Made by a program: the position numbers and the translations under genes. Under the pieces are notes generated by a model, which worked only from the letters and a program-made list of their open reading frames with translations, was not told where the DNA came from and did not search any database. From Escherichia phage UFJF_EcSW4: a stretch of DNA of 40,299 nucleotides. Every line of letters starts with the position of its first letter. The first letter of the stretch is position 1. The stretch lies in the sequence record PP856269; one strand, given 5' to 3'. This document shows positions 10,278 to 37,555 of the stretch, in pieces.

Positions 10278-10498
10278 CTCAAGAAGTTAAGGTCGTTCGT
10301 AAGCGTCTGACCATTGATAAAATCCCGGTAGGCTATGCGTTTATCGTACACGGTAAGCCGGGTGAAGTGTACGTGAAGATTAGTAACTCTCACGTCTTCA
10401 ACCATAAGTTGCTCCAGATGCACACCACGGATGCTAACCGCTTCCAACGTCATCTGAACCTCGTAGCTGTAGAGCTGGTGGTGTACGATGGTGAGTAA
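10274..10498 (+). CDS. Hypothetical protein, 74 aa, between endonuclease I and the amidase
   Basis: ATG overlaps the gp3 stop (ATGA) and has an SD (aaaggag); T7 has no gene here. Confidence 0.5.
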   Translation: MTQEVKVVRKRLTIDKIPVGYAFIVHGKPGEVYVKISNSHVFNHKLLQMHTTDANRFQRHLNLVAVELVVYDGE

Positions 10499-10946
10499 GG
10501 TTCAGTTCAACCCACGGTCCCGCACTGACGCTATCTTCGTTCACTGTTCGGCTACAAAGCCAGATATGGACATCGGGGTAGAGACCATCCGTATGTGGCA
10601 CAAGCAGCAAGGCTGGCTGGACGTAGGCTACCACTTTATAATCAAGCGCGATGGTACTGTGGAAGAGGGTCGCCAGGTCAATGTCGTAGGGTCCCACGTT
10701 AAGGACTGGAACTCACTGTCTGTAGGCGTCTGCCTTGTAGGTGGAGTTGACGCTAAGGGCAAGTTTGAAGCTAACTTCACTCCAGCCCAGATGAACTCCC
10801 TGCGCAACAAGCTGGCTGACCTGAAAGTCCTGTATCCTCAGGCAGAAATCAAAGCACACCATGACGTAGCACCTAAGGCGTGTCCAAGTTTTGACTTGCA
10901 ACGCTGGCTGTCTACCAACGAACTGGTCACTTCCGACCGTGGTTAA
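10488..10946 (+). CDS. 3.5: N-acetylmuramoyl-L-alanine amidase (T7 lysozyme family)
   Basis: TDAIFVHCSATKP, WLDVGYHFIIKRDGTVEEGR, HHDVAPKACPSFDL and the C-terminal NELVTSDRG match T7 gp3.5. Confidence 0.95.
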   Translation: MVSKVQFNPRSRTDAIFVHCSATKPDMDIGVETIRMWHKQQGWLDVGYHFIIKRDGTVEEGRQVNVVGSHVKDWNSLSVGVCLVGGVDAKGKFEANFTPAQMNSLRNKLADLKVLYPQAEIKAHHDVAPKACPSFDLQRWLSTNELVTSDRG

Positions 10947-27066: not shown

Positions 27067-27537
27067 ATGTATATTCGCAAGGCTACGGAACCAGATGTCC
27101 ACTACTTTCTGTGGCATCTTTCAGCAGATGATGTTAATGAGTGCAAAGCAAACTATGGGTCAACCGTTGGTCTCTCTGAAAGACTGCTTAAGCATCTATC
27201 TCCGTCATCTGTGGTTTTAACGAACGGTGTAGGCGAAGTGTTTGCCTATGGTGGAAACCAAGGGGATAACGTATGGTTCTTGACTTCCGGTCTTGTCCAT
27301 AAGCTGAGACCTAAAGAGAAGCTGGAGTTCATAAAGCGTATCTCTGAGTACAGGGACTTAATGTTAGACCAATACGGGACCATCTGGAACTACGTGTGGT
27401 CAGGCACTAAGTCTCACATTAAATTCTTGAAGTTGCTTGGGGCTAAATTCCATGATGATTGGACTGTAAGCCCAGTAACTGGTGAGCGTTTTCAACTATT
27501 CACTATCTCTAAGGAGGACGTATGTGCGAGCCAGTAA
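27067..27537 (+). CDS. Internal virion protein (gene 13 position)
   Basis: 156-aa ORF with SD (taaggagac) between gp12 and gp14; assignment positional. Confidence 0.65.
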   Translation: MYIRKATEPDVHYFLWHLSADDVNECKANYGSTVGLSERLLKHLSPSSVVLTNGVGEVFAYGGNQGDNVWFLTSGLVHKLRPKEKLEFIKRISEYRDLMLDQYGTIWNYVWSGTKSHIKFLKLLGAKFHDDWTVSPVTGERFQLFTISKEDVCASQ

Positions 27538-28109
27538 GTATCGGCATGGGTATTATGGCTGTAGCTGGTGCCACTATGTCCGCATCCCAACAGGCCAAGG
27601 CTGAAGGAGCAGCAATTGACGCTCAGAACCGACAGGCTCAGGAAATGGTTAAGCAGATGAACTACTCTGACGCAAACCTGAAGATGCAGGAGCGAGACCT
27701 GAAGGAGCAGCAGATGGCTGAACTGACAGAGACCACGCTCAACGGTATCCGCAATCAGGGTATGGTCCGAGCTGCGGTGGCTGAGTCCGGTCTGGAAGGT
27801 AACTCTATGGACAGGATTGAACGTCAGGTCGCAGGAGATACAGTCAAGGAGCGAGCAGGGATTACCGAAAGTTACAACCGCGACTATGCGGCTATCTTCG
27901 GGAACCGTATCGCCAACATTGAGAACACCAAGTCTGCTATCCGTGGTCAGGGTAAAATCATCAAGACCAGCCCACTGGCTCATGCACTTAATGTTGCTAC
28001 CGCAGGGATGCAAGGTTACGCCGCTGGTAAGTCAATCTCTGGAGCGTCAAGCTCTGGTGATGCTGCACCAATTAGTGCTGCTAAAGGCACACCTACAGGT
28101 CATAGCTAA
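27522..28109 (+). CDS. 14: Internal virion (core) protein gp14
   Basis: Starts MC..., with LEGNSMDRIERQVAG, ESYNRDYAAIFG and C-terminal APISAAKGTPTG matching T7 gp14. Confidence 0.9.
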   Translation: MCEPVSIGMGIMAVAGATMSASQQAKAEGAAIDAQNRQAQEMVKQMNYSDANLKMQERDLKEQQMAELTETTLNGIRNQGMVRAAVAESGLEGNSMDRIERQVAGDTVKERAGITESYNRDYAAIFGNRIANIENTKSAIRGQGKIIKTSPLAHALNVATAGMQGYAAGKSISGASSSGDAAPISAAKGTPTGHS

Positions 28110-28120
28110 GAGGAGGACTA

Positions 28121-30403
28121 ATGGCTAGTAATATTGAATCAGCTCTGGCTAATCGGACTATGGGTCGCGGCAGAGCGCCGGGTAAAACTATCGCCGTCAA
28201 CTATCAAGCAGCCAACGTTCAGGCTCCGACTGGGGACTCCGGTCTGGCTCGTGCGTTAACCAACTTCGTTGAGTCTGGAACTGGATTGTACAAGCAGTTC
28301 AAAGATGATGAGAAGACACGGGCTGACGAGCGGTCTAACGAGATTATCCGTAAGCTGACTCCTCAGCAGAGACGAGAGGCTATCCAGAACGGGACACTGC
28401 TGTATCAGGACGACCCGTATGCTATGGAAGCACTGCGAGTCAAGACTGGTCGTAATGCTGCCTTTGCTGTAGACGACGAGATTAACGTTAAGATTCAGAA
28501 CGGTGAGTTCCGTACACGTCAGGACATGGAAGAGTATCGCCACCAGCGACTTCAGGACGCCGCTAAGTCCTATGCTGAAGAGGCGGGTATTAACCCTACA
28601 GACGAGTTCTTCCAGCGTGGGTTCAACGATAACATCACAGACCGCAACATCGCTATCTATGGGTCTTTCAATAAGTATTTCAGTAAGCAGTCTGAAGAGA
28701 CAGCAATGTTGAATACTCGTATTGAGATGAACTCATTCCTGAACGATGGCGACCTGATGCGTTCACCTGAGTCTGGCAAGACCTTCATGGCCTACCTTCG
28801 TGATGGACTAACTACTGCTGCCATCCCTTCGGACCAGCGAGCACGGGAGGTAATTACCCAGACGGTCCGTGACGCAATCCAGAAGTCAGGCGGCTCCAAC
28901 TTCCTACAGCAAGTACGAGGCGAGCGAATCACCCTTAACGGCGTGGATGCTACAGTCGAAGAGATTGTAGGACCTGATGTCTTCAACGCTGCTATTGTTG
29001 AGGCGCAAGGAACTGAGTACAAGCTGGTGGCTAAGTATCAGGAGGACTTAGCGTTAGGCGTTCAGTCTGCGATTCTTCAGGACGACCCAACCATCGGTCT
29101 GGACCAGATTCAGAAACTCAAGGAGCAGAACAACCTGCTTCAACCGGGTGAAGAACTCACGCCTCAGCGTCAGATGCTTATTAATGCCGAAGCCAGCTTG
29201 CTTGAAGCGGTAAAGCGTAAGTCTGCTGAACAGGCGAAGGAGAACACTAAGTTAATCCAGACTCAGAACAAGCAACTGGTCATTGACCAAGTGTATCAGC
29301 GACGTCTGGCTGGAGACAACGTGTCCACCAACTATGAGGACCTTCCGGTCTCTGAAGCCACAGGAGAGTTCAAGCGTTCAGACATGAACAACTATGCGTC
29401 TTCTAAGCTACAGCAGATTGACCAGATGGACATCCCTGAGGCTGCTAAGGACGCACAGAAGGTTGCATTATTAAGAGCTGACACTAACAACGGTCCGTTC
29501 CGTAATGCCTTCCAAACGCTTACTCAGGACGCTGCTGGTGAGTGGCAAGCTGCGGTCATCCGTGGGCAGTACGACCCAGACAAGATGCAACGCTTCGAAT
29601 CTCTTCGTCGTGCCTACACTCAGGACCCTTCAAGTTTCGCTGCTCTGTATCCTGACCAAGCTCAGTTGTTCTCTACGTTCGACCAGATGGACAAGATGGG
29701 TCTGGACCCTCAGACGATGATTGAAGCTGATAAGCAAGCTGCAAGTCAAAGCCGTGAGATGCGCATGGAGTCAGACAAGGCGTGGCAGGAGTTGAAGAAC
29801 GACTCTCGGAATAAGGACCTTTCGCGTCTTCCTACGTCTCTAGACTCAAGTGCTCGTAAGGTCTGGGACTCATGGTACTATCGTACAGGTAACGCTGACG
29901 CTGCAACGCAGCAGACTCAACGCTGGCTGAACGAGAACACCGTAACGTTCCAGTCTGAAGGTTCTGACGGTAAGTCCATCGGCATGGTGTCAAAGCACCA
30001 GCTTATGGTCGGGGATAACCCAGAGTCGTGGCAGGTGGGTCGAGACATTATCGACACCGCTCGTAAGCAGCTCATTAAGGCTAACCCTTGGGTAGTTAAC
30101 TCTCAGTTGTCCGTTGTTGAACAGAACGGCTCTATCTTCCTCCAAGACGCTACAGGGACTATTCGTATTCGCTACGATAAAGAACTTGTAGGTAAACTCT
30201 ACCGCGAACAACAGCAGAAGGCACAAGATGCCGCATACGCTCAGGCAGAACGTGACGCTAACAAGCGAGCGCGTATCGTCGGGACTAAAGCTGCTGGTGA
30301 CAAACGTCGAGCTGACCGAGAGGCCAACATCGAGAAGCGCGGTGGGATGTATAATGACGTCTCACTGGAGGGTATCGCAAACGTACTAATTGGTAAGGAG
30401 TAA
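28121..30403 (+). CDS. 15: Internal virion (core) protein gp15
   Basis: ADERSNEIIRKLTPQQRREAIQNGTLLYQDDPYAMEALRVKTGRNAAF is near-identical to T7 gp15; similar length (760 aa). Confidence 0.93.
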   Translation: MASNIESALANRTMGRGRAPGKTIAVNYQAANVQAPTGDSGLARALTNFVESGTGLYKQFKDDEKTRADERSNEIIRKLTPQQRREAIQNGTLLYQDDPYAMEALRVKTGRNAAFAVDDEINVKIQNGEFRTRQDMEEYRHQRLQDAAKSYAEEAGINPTDEFFQRGFNDNITDRNIAIYGSFNKYFSKQSEETAMLNTRIEMNSFLNDGDLMRSPESGKTFMAYLRDGLTTAAIPSDQRAREVITQTVRDAIQKSGGSNFLQQVRGERITLNGVDATVEEIVGPDVFNAAIVEAQGTEYKLVAKYQEDLALGVQSAILQDDPTIGLDQIQKLKEQNNLLQPGEELTPQRQMLINAEASLLEAVKRKSAEQAKENTKLIQTQNKQLVIDQVYQRRLAGDNVSTNYEDLPVSEATGEFKRSDMNNYASSKLQQIDQMDIPEAAKDAQKVALLRADTNNGPFRNAFQTLTQDAAGEWQAAVIRGQYDPDKMQRFESLRRAYTQDPSSFAALYPDQAQLFSTFDQMDKMGLDPQTMIEADKQAASQSREMRMESDKAWQELKNDSRNKDLSRLPTSLDSSARKVWDSWYYRTGNADAATQQTQRWLNENTVTFQSEGSDGKSIGMVSKHQLMVGDNPESWQVGRDIIDTARKQLIKANPWVVNSQLSVVEQNGSIFLQDATGTIRIRYDKELVGKLYREQQQKAQDAAYAQAERDANKRARIVGTKAAGDKRRADREANIEKRGGMYNDVSLEGIANVLIGKE

Positions 30404-30407
30404 CATA

Positions 30408-33400
30408 ATGGCGACTCGTGGTATTCGCAATAACAATCCGGGTAACATCCGGGTAAGTAAGGACCAATGGGAAGGAATGACTGGAGATGATGGCGCATTT
30501 GTCACCTTCGATAGTCCAGAGTCTGGCGTCCGAGCTTTAGGTAAAAACCTGCTGTCCTACGGTCGCCAAGGTTATGACTCCATCGAGAAGATTATCAATC
30601 GATGGGCACCTCCTAACGAGAACGACACTAAGGCTTATATTGACTCAGTGGTGGCTGCAACTGGTATTCCAGCTACCCAGAGTCTCGACCTATCGGACAC
30701 TGACACCCTGTCTTCTCTGGCTCAAGCTATCAGCTTCCATGAGACAGGATCCCGGTACGACCCAGAAGTCTATCAGAAGGGAGTCGCAAGAGCACTCAAT
30801 GGCATTAGCCCAAAGACTCCACCAGTAAGCGCTAACGTATTTGACGCACTCACGGAAGGACTCAAGGCTAAACCTAAAGTAGCTCTGGGTGAGAACCTTC
30901 CGACCGCTGCTGGTATGAACATTGAGGGTCAAGCACCTGAAGCTCCCAACGAATCTTTCGGTGAGATGTTCTATAAGGCTACTGGCGAGACCATGCAGGA
31001 ACGAGAGGGCCGCTCTACGTGGTTCGGTTTCGGTGCGGCTACAGAAGCTGAAGTGAAGAACTCTATGGTCGGCGTGGCTATCAGAGCTGGTCAGACTGAG
31101 GACTCACTGGATGTCATTGGCGATGTGTTCAACCCAACCCGATGGAATAACCATAAGTGGTCTCGTGAGGAGCTGGACCAGATTCGTAACGCTGGGGTTC
31201 TGCCTCAGTATTACGGGGTCATTACTGGTGGCTCCCCTCAGAACCTGACCGAGCTTATTAACTTGGCGCTTGAGAACCAGAAGTTGGACCAAGAGAAGGC
31301 CAAGGCCGGGACTGGTGCTCAACTGGCGGCTGGTGTGATTGGTGCTGGCGTGGACCCTCTGACCTACGTTCCTATTGCTGGGCAGGTAGGTAAAGGTGGG
31401 AAGCTAGTCAACAAGATGTTCACTGTGGCTGCTCAGTCTGGTGCTCTGGCGGGGGCATCCGAGATTGCTCGAACCTCAGTTGCTGGTGGGGACGCTCATG
31501 TGGCTGAGGCAATTATGGGCGGTGCTCTCTTCGGTGGGGGAATGACAGCTATCGGGGACGCTATCGGCAAGGCCTTAGGCAAGACAACCAACGAGTTCGC
31601 CGGGCCAGCCACACGTCTGGAAGCCCGTGAGACTGCACGTAATGTTGATGGTCAGGACCTGTCGCGTATGCCAATCCGTGAAGGTGAGCAGACATTTAGT
31701 CACCAAGGCGTTAAGTTCGCTGACGTGCCGAATGAGCCGGGTAGTGTACGACTGGAAGATGGTTCAATCCTGATTGGTGAGAACCCTCTGAACCCTAAGA
31801 CACGTCAAGTCTTTGACGAAGTGATTGAGCCTGAACGGGCCGCTGCTGGTGTGAACCTTGGTGGACTTACCGAGATTGGCCTGAAGCTGCTTCGGTCTGA
31901 GAACCCTGAGATTCGTGGAGTAGCTGCTGACTTAGTGCGTTCACCGACTGGTATGCAGTCTGGGGCCTCAGGTAAAATCGGGACCACTGCGTCAGACGTA
32001 TTCGAGAGACTTCGTGCTGTGGACCATCGGTTCTACAACGACATCGACGATGCGGTTACTGAGGCACTAAAGGACCCGTACTTCCAGACAGCATTCTGGC
32101 GAGACTCTGGAGCATTCCGTCAGGACATCTACCAGCGCGTGTCTATGGCTATCGAAGATGGTAGCGGAAATCTGAAGGCTGAACTGACTCCTGGAGAACT
32201 GAAAGTCTATGACCTACTGAAGAACCAGTTTGACGCCAAGCGTGAGATGATGGAGAACCCGGCGATGTTTGGTCGTCAAGACGCTCAGTCTATCTTTCCG
32301 GGCAGCCGCTTCAAGGGAACATACGTCCCGCATGTGTATAGCAACCAGATGAAGGAGCTGTACATCAAGGAGCTTGGGAGTCCAGAGGCATTACAGGAGG
32401 CCATCAAGAAGTCATGGTTGACCAGCTATGCGTCTCGACCTGAGGTCAAGAAACGTGTGGACGAGGCACTCTTAGAGGCTGACCCTACGTTGACTCCAGA
32501 AGGACTTGCGGCTGCGGTCGATAAGTACGCCAACGATAAGGCTTATGGTATCTCTCACACCGAGCAGTTCGAGCGTTCATCCGTAATGGAAGAGAACATC
32601 AATGGTCTGGTGGGTCTGGAGAACAACAGCTTCCTTGAGGCTCGTAACCTGTTCGATAGCGATATGTCAATCGTCCTACCTAACGGTCAGACCTTCAGTG
32701 TCAACAACCTGCGTGAGTGGGACATGGACAAGATTGTCCCGGCCTACAACCGTCGAGTTAATGGCGATATTGCTATCATGGCTGGTACAGGCAAGACCAC
32801 GAAGGACATGAAGGACTTGGTTGAGACCATGATGAACAAGGCTGGGGATGACGGTAAGTTGAAAGGTGAAGTATCTACCTTACGTGACACCTTGAAGATT
32901 CTAACTGGTCGTGCTCGACGTGATGGTGCTGATGATGCAGCCTTCGCTACCGTGATGCGCACAATGACAGACCTATCGTTCTTCGCCAAGAATGCCTACA
33001 TGGGTGTTCAGAACTTAACGGAGATTGGTGGTATGCTGGCTCGTGGCAACGTTCGTGCACTGCTTCATGGAGTCCCTATTTTCCGTGACCTAGCCTTCCG
33101 TAACAAGAAGGTTGGGGCCTCGGAGATTAAGGACCTGCATAATGTGATCTTCGGTAAGGAACTGGACGACTCAATCCGTCCGTCTAAACAGGATGTCATT
33201 GACCGTCTGCGGTCTTACAGTGACCTCGGTCGTGGTACAGCTACAGCTCTGGGGACTGCCAAGTATTACACTGGCGAACTTGCAGTACGCTCTCCGTTCA
33301 CTAAAGTCCTCAACGGTACGACCAACTACCTGTTAGATGCTGGACGTCAAGGCTTCCTGTCTGACATCGTGGAGCATAGCCTTACTGGTAGTAAGCGTAA

Positions 33401-34295
33401 GTTCGATGACCGCTGGCTTAAGACCGCTGGTATCTCTGACGAGCAGTGGAAGGGAATTAAGTCCCTCATCCGTGAGTCAGTGACGCGTGGTCCAGACGGG
33501 AAGTATACCATCAAGGATAAGAAGGCGTTCAGTCAGGACCCAAGGGCTATGGACCTGTGGCGTATTGGTGATACCATCGCTGACGAAACGTTACTCCGGC
33601 CCCACAAGCTGTCCAACATGGACGCCAAGGCTTATGGTCCTCTCGCTAAGACTGTCCTTCAGTTTAAGAACTTCGTTATCAAGTCTATCAACGGTCGAAC
33701 CATGCGTACCTTCTACAACGCCACCAAGAACAACCGAGCTATGGATGCTGCACTGTCCACGGTTATGTCTATGGGTCTGGCTGGGATGTACTACATGGCT
33801 CAGGCGCACATCAAGGCTTACGCTATGCAGGACGGTCGTGACCGTGAGTACCTGAAGCAAGCCCTGAACCCGACGATGATTGGCTATGCGGCCCTGTCCC
33901 GTAGTTCACATCTAGGTGGACCACTTGGGGTCGCTAACATTCTTGGTGGTATCGCTGGGTATGAGGACACTAAGATGCTCCGTTCGTCTATCCTCCCGCG
34001 TTCACCTACAGAGAAGCCCGAACGTGCCATCTCATATGGTGCGGCTACAAGTGACCCTGTGATGAATGTCGTTGGTAACTTCTTGGAGCAGGTCCCGGCT
34101 TTCGGCTATGCTGCTAACGTTGGCGCTTCGGCATACAACTTGGCTGGCTACCTCAAGGCTGATACCCGTGTCAACGAGCGAGACTACATGACCGGGATGT
34201 ATAACACGTTCCGTGAACTTGTACCGAATGACCCGATTACCCAGAAGTTGCTGCTTGGGACGTTTGAGGAGCAAGGCATCCACATCAAGGACTAA
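30408..34295 (+). CDS. 16: Internal virion (core) protein gp16 with a divergent, non-SLT N-terminal module
   Basis: From about residue 200 onward matches T7 gp16 (TRWN.H.W..EELD.IR, VITGGSPQNL, GVDPLTYVPIAG, RLEARETARN, VRSPTGMQSGASGK, GTYVPHVY, LRPHK...); the first ~180 aa (MATRGIRNNNPGNIR...) lack the T7 lytic-transglycosylase motifs. Start at the ATG with AAGGAG at spacing 8; the track ORF starts at a TTG at 30390. Confidence 0.93.
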   Translation: MATRGIRNNNPGNIRVSKDQWEGMTGDDGAFVTFDSPESGVRALGKNLLSYGRQGYDSIEKIINRWAPPNENDTKAYIDSVVAATGIPATQSLDLSDTDTLSSLAQAISFHETGSRYDPEVYQKGVARALNGISPKTPPVSANVFDALTEGLKAKPKVALGENLPTAAGMNIEGQAPEAPNESFGEMFYKATGETMQEREGRSTWFGFGAATEAEVKNSMVGVAIRAGQTEDSLDVIGDVFNPTRWNNHKWSREELDQIRNAGVLPQYYGVITGGSPQNLTELINLALENQKLDQEKAKAGTGAQLAAGVIGAGVDPLTYVPIAGQVGKGGKLVNKMFTVAAQSGALAGASEIARTSVAGGDAHVAEAIMGGALFGGGMTAIGDAIGKALGKTTNEFAGPATRLEARETARNVDGQDLSRMPIREGEQTFSHQGVKFADVPNEPGSVRLEDGSILIGENPLNPKTRQVFDEVIEPERAAAGVNLGGLTEIGLKLLRSENPEIRGVAADLVRSPTGMQSGASGKIGTTASDVFERLRAVDHRFYNDIDDAVTEALKDPYFQTAFWRDSGAFRQDIYQRVSMAIEDGSGNLKAELTPGELKVYDLLKNQFDAKREMMENPAMFGRQDAQSIFPGSRFKGTYVPHVYSNQMKELYIKELGSPEALQEAIKKSWLTSYASRPEVKKRVDEALLEADPTLTPEGLAAAVDKYANDKAYGISHTEQFERSSVMEENINGLVGLENNSFLEARNLFDSDMSIVLPNGQTFSVNNLREWDMDKIVPAYNRRVNGDIAIMAGTGKTTKDMKDLVETMMNKAGDDGKLKGEVSTLRDTLKILTGRARRDGADDAAFATVMRTMTDLSFFAKNAYMGVQNLTEIGGMLARGNVRALLHGVPIFRDLAFRNKKVGASEIKDLHNVIFGKELDDSIRPSKQDVIDRLRSYSDLGRGTATALGTAKYYTGELAVRSPFTKVLNGTTNYLLDAGRQGFLSDIVEHSLTGSKRKFDDRWLKTAGISDEQWKGIKSLIRESVTRGPDGKYTIKDKKAFSQDPRAMDLWRIGDTIADETLLRPHKLSNMDAKAYGPLAKTVLQFKNFVIKSINGRTMRTFYNATKNNRAMDAALSTVMSMGLAGMYYMAQAHIKAYAMQDGRDREYLKQALNPTMIGYAALSRSSHLGGPLGVANILGGIAGYEDTKMLRSSILPRSPTEKPERAISYGAATSDPVMNVVGNFLEQVPAFGYAANVGASAYNLAGYLKADTRVNERDYMTGMYNTFRELVPNDPITQKLLLGTFEEQGIHIKD

Positions 34296-34360: not shown

Positions 34361-36391
34361 ATGTCCACGATTACACAATTCCCTTCAGGAAGCACTCAGT
34401 ACAGGATTGAGTTCGACTACCTAGCCAGAACGTTTGTTGTTGTTACGCTGGTGAATAGCTCTAACCCTACCCTGAACCGTGTACTGGAAGTTGGTCGAGA
34501 TTACCGATTCCTTAATCCAACGATGATTGAGATGTTGGTTGACCAATCAGGTTTCGACATCGTTCGCATTCACCGTCAGACTGGAACTGACTTAGTGGTA
34601 GACTTCAGGAATGGCTCAGTGTTGACAGCTAGTGACCTGACAAATTCAGAGCTTCAGGCTATCCATATTGCAGAAGAAGGTAGAGACCAAACGGTTGACT
34701 TAGCGAAGGAATATGCCGATGCTGCTGGTAGCTCTGCTGGCAACGCTAAGGATAGCGAGGACGAAGCACGACGAATCGCTGAGAGTATCAGGGAGGCTGG
34801 TCTAATTGGTTATATTACCCGTCGCTCCTTCGAGAAAGGCTACAACGTTACAACATGGAGCGAGGTCCTGCTATGGGAAGAGGATGGTGATTATTACCGC
34901 TGGGATGGTACGCTTCCAAAGAACGTTCCTGCTGGTTCAACTCCTGAAACTTCCGGTGGGATTGGATTAGGTGCGTGGGTTAGTGTTGGTGATGCTGCTT
35001 TAAGAAGTCAGATTTCAAACCCGGAAGGGGCAATACTCTACCCAGAATTACAGATGGCACGCTGGCGAGATGAGGGCGATGTTCGCGGATGGGGTGCTAA
35101 AGGTGATGGTTCTGCGGATGATACAGAGGCTTTCAAGGCAGCACTGGCAACAGGAAAGAATCTATATATCCCCGTTGGTATATACATCATTAAAGAGACT
35201 TTGTACTTTAAGAACCAAGTTATTAAAGGTGGGGGAATATCTCCATCACCAAGTCTTGGTACAATCCTAGCAATCTCTCACAATGAAGCAGCTTTTAAGT
35301 ATGACGTTAACTCTGGATACTCCATGGGTGGCTACTTAGGCGGTTTCTTCATTGATTATGGTGAGAACAAGCCAGACAACTATGGTGGTCGCAAAGGTAT
35401 TGATATTGGTGATGCATCGCAGACAGTATGGCCTTCACAATTTATCATTGAGAACATCATAGTACGTGGTGCGTACTTTGGTATTCATGACGTGACAGGG
35501 GCTTTTCAGTATACCATGCGTAACGTATTGGCGATTAATTGCTGGGAAGGTTTCCGTAAGCATATTGGTACTACAGTCCTAATGGATACATGCTACGCAC
35601 TTAATTGTTATCAGGCGTTCAATTTTGCAAACGTGTACAACATGACTATGAACAATTGTGCAATGGACGGCTGTAATGATATACAAGGTCTACAGGCTTT
35701 TGATATTAACAACTGTAAAGGTATGGTAATAAATGGCATGTACAGCGAGAACTGTGAGATTCATCATAATGGACATGCCTCTATATATATTCATGGGGAC
35801 TCAACAGTAACACTTAACGGATATGCACTACATTCCCACAAAGTTCTGGCTAGTTCTGGGGAGGCTTACTTCTTACGAGCACATGAAAGTTCTCGCGTTA
35901 CTGTTGATGGTATCTTCTTCGGGGAAGACCTGACGTCTACTGCTGTATTCATGTACCCAGTCCTGTCTTCTGGGGATGCTAGAGTTCAGCTTGGAACTAC
36001 TAGATTGAAGTTGTGGACTGGTGCTACGGGTGGCGCGTCACTGGCTGCACTAGGTAACAGTTTGATTGAGTATGACAACACAGTCTTTGTTCCAACAGTC
36101 ACGGTCGGATGGTGTAGCAACAACGGAGTTGTAGCCAAAGGTACTCTTGCAGTTAACACTACGCTTGAACCAGGTGCTGACCTGAATGCTGGTAATATCA
36201 CCCTCACTGGTGACTACAAGCCAACTAAGGGGGATGTGCTTGTGTATGGTGCTACCTTTGATGTTAAGTCATGTTCAATTATTCTCAAGCCAATAGGGGA
36301 GAATTTATGTAATGTGTACATTAAGAACTTAAGTGCAGGTGGTAGTGCTACTCTTCTTGGTGACTTGATGGTACAGGCCATCCGACGCTAG
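34361..36391 (+). CDS. 17: Tailspike/tail fiber: T7 gp17-like N-terminal adaptor plus pectate-lyase-type beta-helix (putative polysaccharide depolymerase) domain
   Basis: N-terminus (YRIEFDYLARTFVVVTL...DYRFLN...LVVDFRNGSVLTASDL...AIHIAEEGRD) matches the T7 gp17 N-terminal domain; from about residue 240 GWGAKGDGSADDTEAFKAAL...LYIPVGIY is the classic start of a right-handed beta-helix glycanase. Confidence 0.9.
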   Translation: MSTITQFPSGSTQYRIEFDYLARTFVVVTLVNSSNPTLNRVLEVGRDYRFLNPTMIEMLVDQSGFDIVRIHRQTGTDLVVDFRNGSVLTASDLTNSELQAIHIAEEGRDQTVDLAKEYADAAGSSAGNAKDSEDEARRIAESIREAGLIGYITRRSFEKGYNVTTWSEVLLWEEDGDYYRWDGTLPKNVPAGSTPETSGGIGLGAWVSVGDAALRSQISNPEGAILYPELQMARWRDEGDVRGWGAKGDGSADDTEAFKAALATGKNLYIPVGIYIIKETLYFKNQVIKGGGISPSPSLGTILAISHNEAAFKYDVNSGYSMGGYLGGFFIDYGENKPDNYGGRKGIDIGDASQTVWPSQFIIENIIVRGAYFGIHDVTGAFQYTMRNVLAINCWEGFRKHIGTTVLMDTCYALNCYQAFNFANVYNMTMNNCAMDGCNDIQGLQAFDINNCKGMVINGMYSENCEIHHNGHASIYIHGDSTVTLNGYALHSHKVLASSGEAYFLRAHESSRVTVDGIFFGEDLTSTAVFMYPVLSSGDARVQLGTTRLKLWTGATGGASLAALGNSLIEYDNTVFVPTVTVGWCSNNGVVAKGTLAVNTTLEPGADLNAGNITLTGDYKPTKGDVLVYGATFDVKSCSIILKPIGENLCNVYIKNLSAGGSATLLGDLMVQAIRR

Positions 36392-36549: not shown

Positions 36550-36744
36550 ATGATTGAGTTAGACTTCAAGAATGAGGTCCTTAAAGCCTCTCCTATAGTC
36601 GGGACCGCTGCGGCTGATGGTGCCAGTCGGTTCTTCTTCGGACTTACACTGAACGAATGGTTCTACGTTGCAGCTATCGCGTACACCGTTGTCCAGATTG
36701 GTGTGCTAGTCTACAAAACGATTAAAGGAGGTGGTAAAACATGA
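36550..36744 (+). CDS. 17.5: Holin (class II)
   Basis: ASPIVGTAAADGASRFFFGLTLNEWFYVAAIAYTVVQIG matches T7 gp17.5 (AAPIVGTGVADVSARLFFGLSLNEWFYVAAIAYTVVQIG). Confidence 0.88.
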   Translation: MIELDFKNEVLKASPIVGTAAADGASRFFFGLTLNEWFYVAAIAYTVVQIGVLVYKTIKGGGKT

Positions 36745-37105: not shown

Positions 37106-37555
37106 ATGCTCGAATTTTTAAAGAGATCGGCTCCGTGGTTACTTGCAGCAGTGATGTTTGCTGGTGGATACCACACCGCTAACAATAAGTGGGAGGCTAA
37201 GGTCAATGAAGAATACACCTCGAATCTTAAGGCATCGGAAGATACAAGGCTTGCTGTCCAAGCTGAAGTCAACAAAGTGTCCAAACGGTTTCAGGACGAA
37301 ATGTCCTCGCTGGAAGGCAGCACTGATAGGATTATTGCTGACCTTCAGTCTGACAATAAGCGGCTGCGCATCCGAGTCAAACCAACGAGTGGAACCACGC
37401 AAAGTGACGGTCGATGCGTCATTGATGGTTACGCCGAACTTGATGAACGAGATGCTAAACGTCTTATCGCCATCGGAGTGAAAGGAGACAAGTGGATTAA
37501 GGCCCTTCAGGACACTGTGAGAGCCTTGCAGCAAGATAAGGAGGTGACGCATTGA
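37106..37555 (+). CDS. 18.5: i-spanin (Rz-like inner-membrane lysis protein)
   Basis: [21 protein letters not shown]... and [34 protein letters not shown] match T7 gp18.5. Confidence 0.85.
37206..37481 (+). CDS. 18.7: o-spanin (Rz1-like outer-membrane lipoprotein), embedded in the +1 frame of the i-spanin gene
   Basis: [25 protein letters not shown] (lipobox ISGC) and C-terminal [17 protein letters not shown] match T7 gp18.7; start taken at the ATG with an upstream SD; the track ORF begins at a TTG at 37158. Confidence 0.75.
   Translation: MKNTPRILRHRKIQGLLSKLKSTKCPNGFRTKCPRWKAALIGLLLTFSLTISGCASESNQRVEPRKVTVDASLMVTPNLMNEMLNVLSPSE

Follow-up and report, generated by a model that had tools for sequence, protein, structure and literature searches.

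The gp16 gene of phage UFJF_EcSW4

Sequence record PP856269 (40,299 nucleotides; the window analysed here) represents the essentially complete genome of Escherichia phage UFJF_EcSW4, a K1F-like phage (Kayfunavirus, Studiervirinae). The element under consideration is gp16, the gene for a T7-type internal virion protein whose first 128 residues do not correspond to those of T7. In this protein, the lytic transglycosylase (SLT) domain of T7-type gp16 is likely to have been replaced, at a domain boundary, by an Enc34-type domain with predicted peptidoglycan hydrolase activity. The DNA of the gp16 region is 96-97% identical to that of K1F, YZ1, LM33_P1 and many other phages, and the coordinates of the features discussed below are collected in Table 1.

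The gp16 open reading frame (ORF) reported in an initial annotation of this genome is real, with an ATG, a ribosome-binding site (RBS) and a stop codon, and the N-terminal sequence quoted there is correct. The spacing between the RBS, taaggag, and the ATG at 30408 is six bases, and the gp15 stop codon occupies 30401-30403. This ATG with its RBS is the true start, and the Gp29 chain of PDB 9VVP matches residue for residue from Met1; a TTG start at 30390, which appears in a mechanical ORF list and lies inside gp15, was rejected.

Beyond the N-terminal module, gp16 is an ordinary T7-type internal virion (ejection) protein. HMMER aligns it with the T7 gp16 chains 7eyb, 7k5c and 6yt5 at 1309 bits, only over query residues 125-1294 and T7 residues 152-1314; phrog_342 matches the core at 1088 bits, and identity with T7 gp16 over residues 183-1000 is 57% in a MAFFT alignment. 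Gp29 of 9VVP ('Core proteins of bacteriophage E1004', a 2025 entry) is ~98% identical over the full length, and this near-identical homologue from another phage (E1004) places the protein in the internal core of the capsid. No publication behind PDB 9VVP or on phage E1004 was found in the literature searched.

Table 1. Positions of gp16, its parts and other relevant genes in the UFJF_EcSW4 genome
Feature	Position	Strand	Basis or remark
gp16 ORF	ATG 30408, stop 34293-34295	+	1295 amino acids, 141 kDa
gp16 RBS, taaggag	30394..30400	+	Read directly from the sequence; overlaps the last gp15 codons
gp16 residues 1-128, Enc34-type (PHA02564 / PM2 P5-like) domain, predicted muralytic	30408..30791	+	Replaces the T7 SLT domain
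W66 codon TGG (Enc34 Trp79)	30603..30605	+	7q47 alignment
Y77 codon TAT (Enc34 Tyr95)	30636..30638	+	Conservation in the family and in gp16 copies
E112 codon GAG, motif H-E-T-G (Enc34 Glu131, proposed catalytic)	30741..30743	+	Conservation in the family and in gp16 copies
gp16 residues 129-182, variable linker with G-I-S-P-K at its start	30792..30953	+	Homologous to the first part of the T7 tape (T7 157-228)
gp16 residues 183-1295 and stop, conserved internal virion protein D core (membrane-inserting and cytoplasmic ejectosome parts)	30954..34295	+	T7 chains, 9vvp, phrog_342
gp15, internal virion protein C, gp16 partner in the periplasmic tunnel	28121..30403	+	phrog_1339, 1108 bits
gp14, internal virion protein B, outer-membrane ejectosome component	27522..28109	+	phrog_805, 1e-64
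gp13	27067-27537		gp11 and gp12 also among the neighbouring T7 late genes
gp17, tail fibre/spike	34361-36391		PHROG assignment
gp3.5-type amidase, separate lysis endolysin	10488..10946	+	phrog_822, 3e-79
Holin-like ORF	36550-36744
Rz spanin	37106-37555

An Enc34-type domain at the N terminus of gp16

The initial annotation held that SLT motifs are absent from the N terminus of gp16, and a Pfam scan agrees: it returned no SLT domain, nor a match of any kind, even at E<=1. Since the same scan detects PF01464 at the N terminus of T7 gp16 (6.5e-31) and in the gp16 of six other phages (KP32, Torvandi, PP81, SRT7, Laurelin and Mak; 1e-9 to 1e-29), the absence is real and does not reflect a lack of sensitivity. 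Neither the E-S motif in the first helix that marks the SLT/GH23 family (PF01464) nor an SLT domain with a catalytic Glu37, as at the N terminus of T7-type gp16, was found. Scans of the module and of the whole protein against NCBIfam and Pfam were both empty; neither library contains a model of the Enc34-type family, so these null results say nothing about fold or function.

The affiliation of the module is apparent from other comparisons. In PHROGs, phrog_873 ('endolysin') covers residues 2-172 at 8e-55, and further matches place the same domain inside members of tape-measure, head and 'tail injection transglycosylase' families. Among PDB sequences, 7Q47, the endolysin catalytic domain from Hafnia phage Enc34, aligns with residues 3-123 at E=2.8e-15, and a hidden Markov model (HMM) built from A1 matches the module at 1.3e-59. 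A search of a large protein database yielded ~950 relatives, mostly stand-alone proteins of 130-220 amino acids without a Pfam domain; the closest has 55% identity, near-identical gp16 proteins being absent from that search, and close gp16 relatives were drawn from a phage genome collection instead. Many relatives bear the name 'structural protein', which goes back to the structural protein P5 of corticovirus PM2 (CDD PHA02564, 'V; virion protein'). The 52-member family alignment contains 18 invariant columns, and an AlphaFold2 model based on it has a predicted local distance difference test (pLDDT) score above 90 for residues ~10-131, followed by a disordered tail at 134-181; the description of this region as conserved and globular holds. 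In the Enc34 domain, the lysozyme alpha-lobe takes a helical, circularly permuted form (PMC8943055), and the module has this same fold, as in 7Q47, together with significant sequence similarity to characterised Enc34-type members. By these sequence comparisons, the N-terminal module of gp16 is an Enc34-type (PHA02564, PM2 P5-like) domain of known fold and represents neither a new enzyme class nor a new mechanism. The swap to a different, possibly enzymatic, cell-wall-active module that had been proposed is therefore supported, the activity itself being a prediction.

Cernooka et al. (PMC8943055) found the Enc34 domain to be muralytic and proposed that catalysis depends on Glu131 and that Trp79 and Tyr95 position the substrate; Yutin et al. 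mapped the equivalents of these three residues onto PM2 P5. According to the alignment with 7q47 and the pattern of conservation, W79, Y95 and E131 of Enc34 correspond to W66, Y77 and E112 of gp16, and the catalytic signature is intact. E112 and Y77 are invariant in all 52 family members and in every gp16 copy compared; W66 is conserved in at least 90% of the family and is a Tyr in phage MmP1. In the segment that follows the predicted catalytic Glu (residues 113-117; 30744-30758), the Kayfunavirus sequence is H-E-T-G-S-R-Y versus the family consensus H-E-N-G-x-Q-P-Y.

The replacement coincides with a domain boundary

According to PMC8954989, the periplasmic tunnel of T7 has transglycosylase 'wings' made up of gp16 residues 1-156, and gp15 is cemented by a 'molecular tape', residues 157-228. 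The swap boundary in UFJF_EcSW4, at ~128/129, corresponds to the boundary between these two parts. The initial annotation had described a foreign module of ~180 amino acids and alignment to T7 only from about residue 200. The foreign domain indeed exists but comprises only residues 1-~128, residues 129-182 being an ordinary variable gp16 linker with low pLDDT; likewise, homology to T7 is strong from ~183 but resumes weakly already at the G-I-[ST]-P-K motif (gp16 129-134, T7 ~158-163), as seen in the MAFFT alignment and in the HMMER alignment, which starts at query residue 125 and T7 residue 152. Given the restart of homology at this motif and the limits of the T7 domains, the replacement is domain-exact. 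The UFJF_EcSW4 protein thus resembles T7 gp16 (PDB 7EYB, 7K5C, 6YT5) in gene position, in the linker motif and in the succession of enzyme domain, tape and core; the difference is that residues 1-156 of T7 are an SLT/GH23 domain with E37, whereas an unrelated Enc34-type domain with E112 is present here, and the two domains probably also cleave different bonds by different chemistry. The wall-cutting head of the T7-type ejectosome would then be an exchangeable cassette, with a junction defined at the start of the gp15-binding tape.

Purifying selection and cassette exchange

Ratios of nonsynonymous to synonymous substitution rates (dN/dS), calculated by the Nei-Gojobori method between UFJF_EcSW4 and five Kayfunavirus relatives, are 0.08-0.13 in the module and 0.05-0.14 in the core; purifying selection acts on the module. 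Versus phage LNA5, the module shows a dS of ~1.1 and 81% amino acid identity, compared with a dS of 0.01-0.11 and 98-99% identity in the adjoining linker and core. At the DNA level, UFJF_EcSW4 and phage Esher2 share 98-100% identity along gp15, 72-83% between the gp16 ATG and ~+420, and 100% thereafter; the divergent block relative to LNA5 extends from -240 to +360 with respect to the ATG. The exchanged stretch spans 30168-30830 (~-240 to +420 around the gp16 ATG), and its 3' breakpoint falls at the domain/linker boundary; DNA identity with both Esher2 and LNA5 is 72-83% in the module, compared with 98-100% in the gp15 flank and the remainder of gp16. The N-terminal module of gp16 is a recombination cassette among kayfunaviruses.

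Distribution of the module and comparison with known systems

Comparison with the gp16 of related phages, across diverse Studiervirinae, shows an SLT module at the N terminus in seven of the eight other lineages sampled (T7, KP32, Pifdecavirus, Pektosvirus, Foetvirus, Ghunavirus and Mak) and the Enc34 type only in Kayfunavirus and in Morganella phage MmP1. In the phage collection, the gp16 core is present in ~1283 records, the T7-type SLT N-terminal domain in ~1070, and the Kayfunavirus-type Enc34 module (counted at >=60% identity) in ~223. The MmP1-type module is found in 7 Minipunavirus records, representing 5 distinct phages of Morganella/Providencia; these are all the Morganella/Providencia T7-like phages in the collection. 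The gp16 of MmP1 and of the related Morganella phage MP2 (Minipunavirus) has the same layout, an Enc34-type module on a gp16 core, with 44% module identity and ~46-52% core identity to UFJF_EcSW4 and with Q-E-N-G in MmP1 versus H-E-T-G. In a neighbor-joining tree of the family, the UFJF_EcSW4 and MmP1 modules form one clade together with P0001, a metagenomic gp16 fragment that retains a G-I-T-P-K linker, a grouping that fits a single acquisition of the module by gp16.

The closest stand-alone relatives (metagenomic proteins P0016, P0004 and P0053) start nearly as gp16 does (MATRGIRNNNPGNIRKSKDKWQG...) and carry a C-terminal transmembrane helix, as the Enc34 and M4Lys endolysins do. Identity between the module and stand-alone Enc34-type proteins is 50-55%, so that these are closer to it than any SLT domain. 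The sequence relationships suggest that the gp16 module was donated by an enterobacterial phage gene of the endolysin type.

Enc34 ORF39 (PDB 7Q47; CDD PHA02564) and M4Lys of Salmonella phage BSPM4 are lysis proteins of ~25 kDa with a C-terminal transmembrane domain, whereas in UFJF_EcSW4 the domain is the N terminus of a 141-kDa capsid-internal ejection protein and no transmembrane tail follows it directly. Virion-associated members of the family are PM2 P5 and GP11 of vibriophage NO16. With these, and with gp15 of Salmonella phage epsilon15, the gp16 module shares the use of the same domain family in a virion-borne, presumptive cell-wall enzyme for entry; PM2 and NO16, however, are phages with a membrane and no tail, in which the proteins concerned are small and stand alone, unlike the gp16 fusion, and in epsilon15 gp15 the domain is internal and the protein that carries it is not homologous to gp16. 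Altogether, a large group of tailed-phage virion proteins would be added to the contexts in which the Enc34 fold is found.

Epsilon15 gp15 (L002:2203-4731; 842 amino acids) is annotated as 'putative lytic transglycosylase' and has no Pfam match; the Enc34-type domain occupies residues 246-388 (HMM E=4e-58, 51% identity with the UFJF_EcSW4 module), and the protein is probably also virion-internal. In Vibrio phage ICP3, gp16 (L006:1339-4542) has no N-terminal module, only ~54 residues preceding the conserved core, so that in this lineage a wall-cutting head would be either dispensable or supplied elsewhere.

Predicted function and alternative explanations

By analogy with T7, gp16 would be stored in the capsid core and, at infection, ejected through the tail into the periplasm, where the N-terminal globular domain would open a local hole in the peptidoglycan. 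In this scheme, E112 would be the catalytic acid, W66 and Y77 would hold the glycan in position, and the linker after the module would bind gp15 to build the periplasmic tunnel. The bond cut would probably be that between N-acetylglucosamine and N-acetylmuramic acid (GlcNAc-beta-1,4-MurNAc), making the module an N-acetylglucosaminidase rather than a lytic transglycosylase. The module most likely serves DNA entry and not lysis because a separate amidase, holin and spanin set cover the latter; given the gp3.5-type amidase, it would not be needed for lysis from within. The natural pair of SLT and Enc34-type domains on homologous ejection proteins should allow the choice of bond in DNA entry to be tested experimentally.

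A further proposal links the swap to host chemistry: replacement of a lytic transglycosylase, which needs a free C6-OH on MurNAc, by a glucosaminidase would make ejection insensitive to O-acetylation, and gp16 would have acquired the module in phages whose hosts O-acetylate their peptidoglycan. Lytic transglycosylases and lysozymes are both blocked when MurNAc is O-acetylated, and Morganella and Proteus are listed as O-acetylating whereas E. coli is not (PMC6174289); the presence of the module in five out of five Morganella/Providencia T7-like phages fits this scenario, although the correlation is judged weak. These five phages belong to one genus and are not independent, the hosts of kayfunaviruses are mainly E. 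coli and Salmonella, and SLT is retained in Dickeya phages. The proposal is therefore rather doubtful; if true, cassette exchange among kayfunaviruses would reflect adaptation to host cell-wall chemistry.

Several observations weigh against the view of the module as an active peptidoglycan hydrolase used for entry. Next to E112, Kayfunavirus has T113, a position held by Asn in at least 90% of the family and in the Enc34 and M4Lys endolysins, and the near-invariant Pro after G114 is missing from the Kayfunavirus copies; both changes adjoin the predicted catalytic Glu and may tune or weaken activity. Muralytic activity has been demonstrated for Enc34 ORF39deltaC and M4LysdeltaTMD only, a set that includes no gp16-borne copy. 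Muropeptide analysis of M4Lys points to N-acetylglucosaminidase activity, but the data also hint at an endopeptidase, and one figure legend of the M4Lys paper says muramidase; the Enc34-type family's bond specificity is unsettled, beta-N-acetylglucosaminidase probably being the best current assignment in view of the M4Lys muropeptides and the GH73-like geometry, on data that are not clean. T7 can do without its lytic transglycosylase activity unless the peptidoglycan is highly cross-linked (cited in PMC8954989), so the contribution of the module is perhaps conditional. Finally, only 1106 of the 1295 residues are modelled in 9vvp and Foldseek gave only 83 aligned columns for residues 1-181, which makes any placement of the module in the capsid core tentative.

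The altered residues beside E112 and the conditional dispensability of the T7 activity, mutants of which show a defect at 20 °C and on stationary-phase cells, are also what would be expected if the module were a catalytically dead structural 'wing', kept only for assembly of the ejectosome or the core; that ICP3 gp16 functions without any N-terminal module points the same way. Against such a role stand the retention of E112, Y77, W66 (Tyr in MmP1) and most other family invariants in gp16 copies that are only 44% identical, the dN/dS of ~0.1, and the fact that kayfunavirus alleles of one enzyme family replace one another with no copy lost. Loss of catalysis thus appears unlikely.

The direction of the swap is unrooted in the present analysis, and unrelated podoviruses carry the module too in ejection-type proteins, epsilon15 gp15 for example, so that the Enc34-type module could in principle be ancestral in gp16 and SLT the later replacement. 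However, all deep-branching Studiervirinae lineages in the sample have SLT, among them Mak (31% core identity), SRT7, Ghunavirus, Pifdecavirus and Pektosvirus, whereas the Enc34 type occurs only in Kayfunavirus, Minipunavirus and a single metagenomic fragment, its modules forming one clade. This order of events is very improbable.

The possibility that the N-terminal domain arose in place from an SLT/GH23 domain by strong divergence, without any swap, is effectively refuted. A distant common ancestry of the Enc34 fold with GH73 and GH23 has been argued by Cernooka et al. (PMC8943055), and the single stretch aligned by hhalign between the Enc34-type alignment and an alignment of seven gp16 SLT domains, although non-significant, pairs the two catalytic-Glu helices (E112 with T7 E37). 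The probability of this alignment is nevertheless only 0.4% (E=0.14), and BLASTP found nothing. The catalytic Glu is E112 of 128 residues here, near the C-terminal end of the domain, and E37 of 156 in T7, near the N-terminal end; with the Glu at opposite ends, the topology is permuted, which matches the published permutation and excludes simple divergence in place. The absence of a Pfam SLT match and the greater proximity of the module to stand-alone Enc34-type proteins than to any SLT domain add to this, and so do the mosaic breakpoints that flank it; moreover, with 57% identity to T7 in the remainder of gp16, divergence in place would require an implausible local rate.

The notion of a second endolysin acting late in infection, which could appeal to the stand-alone relatives Enc34 ORF39 and M4Lys being endolysins, has a negligible probability, considering that the module is joined to an ejection protein located inside the capsid, lacks any signal or transmembrane segment of the kind seen in Enc34/M4Lys, and resides in a phage with a full lysis set (amidase, holin, Rz).

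Annotation of gp16 in Kayfunavirus and Minipunavirus

The fold, its muralytic activity and its virion-associated use are already published, and Kayfunavirus gp16 sequences have been public since K1F. No statement linking K1F or Kayfunavirus gp16 to Enc34 or PHA02564 was found in the searchable literature, a reach outside which lie the K1F genome paper (Scholl & Merril 2005) and the structural work on E1004, either of which could mention it. GenBank labels for Kayfunavirus gp16 include 'peptidoglycan lytic exotransglycosylase', 'peptidoglycan transglycosylase', 'MltF' and even 'endo-type membrane-bound chitopentaose'; names of the lytic transglycosylase type appear to have been transferred from T7, and, judged by the predicted domain, 'peptidoglycan transglycosylase gp16' and 'MltF' are inapplicable to the UFJF_EcSW4 protein. 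A 2025 survey lists Kayfunavirus and Minipunavirus gp16 without any domain. For gp45 of Morganella phage MP2, the paper describing this phage (PMC5384007) states an SLT motif; the N terminus of this protein is 83.6% identical to the Enc34-type module of MmP1. The present assignment corrects a widespread mislabelling that affects hundreds of Kayfunavirus and Minipunavirus gp16 entries without an SLT domain.

Genome context

PHROG assignments of the neighboring genes give the T7-type order gp13-gp14-gp15-gp16-gp17, and gp18 and terminase are also present among the late genes around gp16. The gp17 protein combines a T7-type N-terminal adaptor (phrog_27367, residues 1-217) with a C-terminal part (phrog_8649, residues 254-587) that differs from the K1F endosialidase, the total length being 676 amino acids versus ~1064 in K1F. 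Given this different C-terminal part, UFJF_EcSW4 is probably not specific for the K1 capsule.

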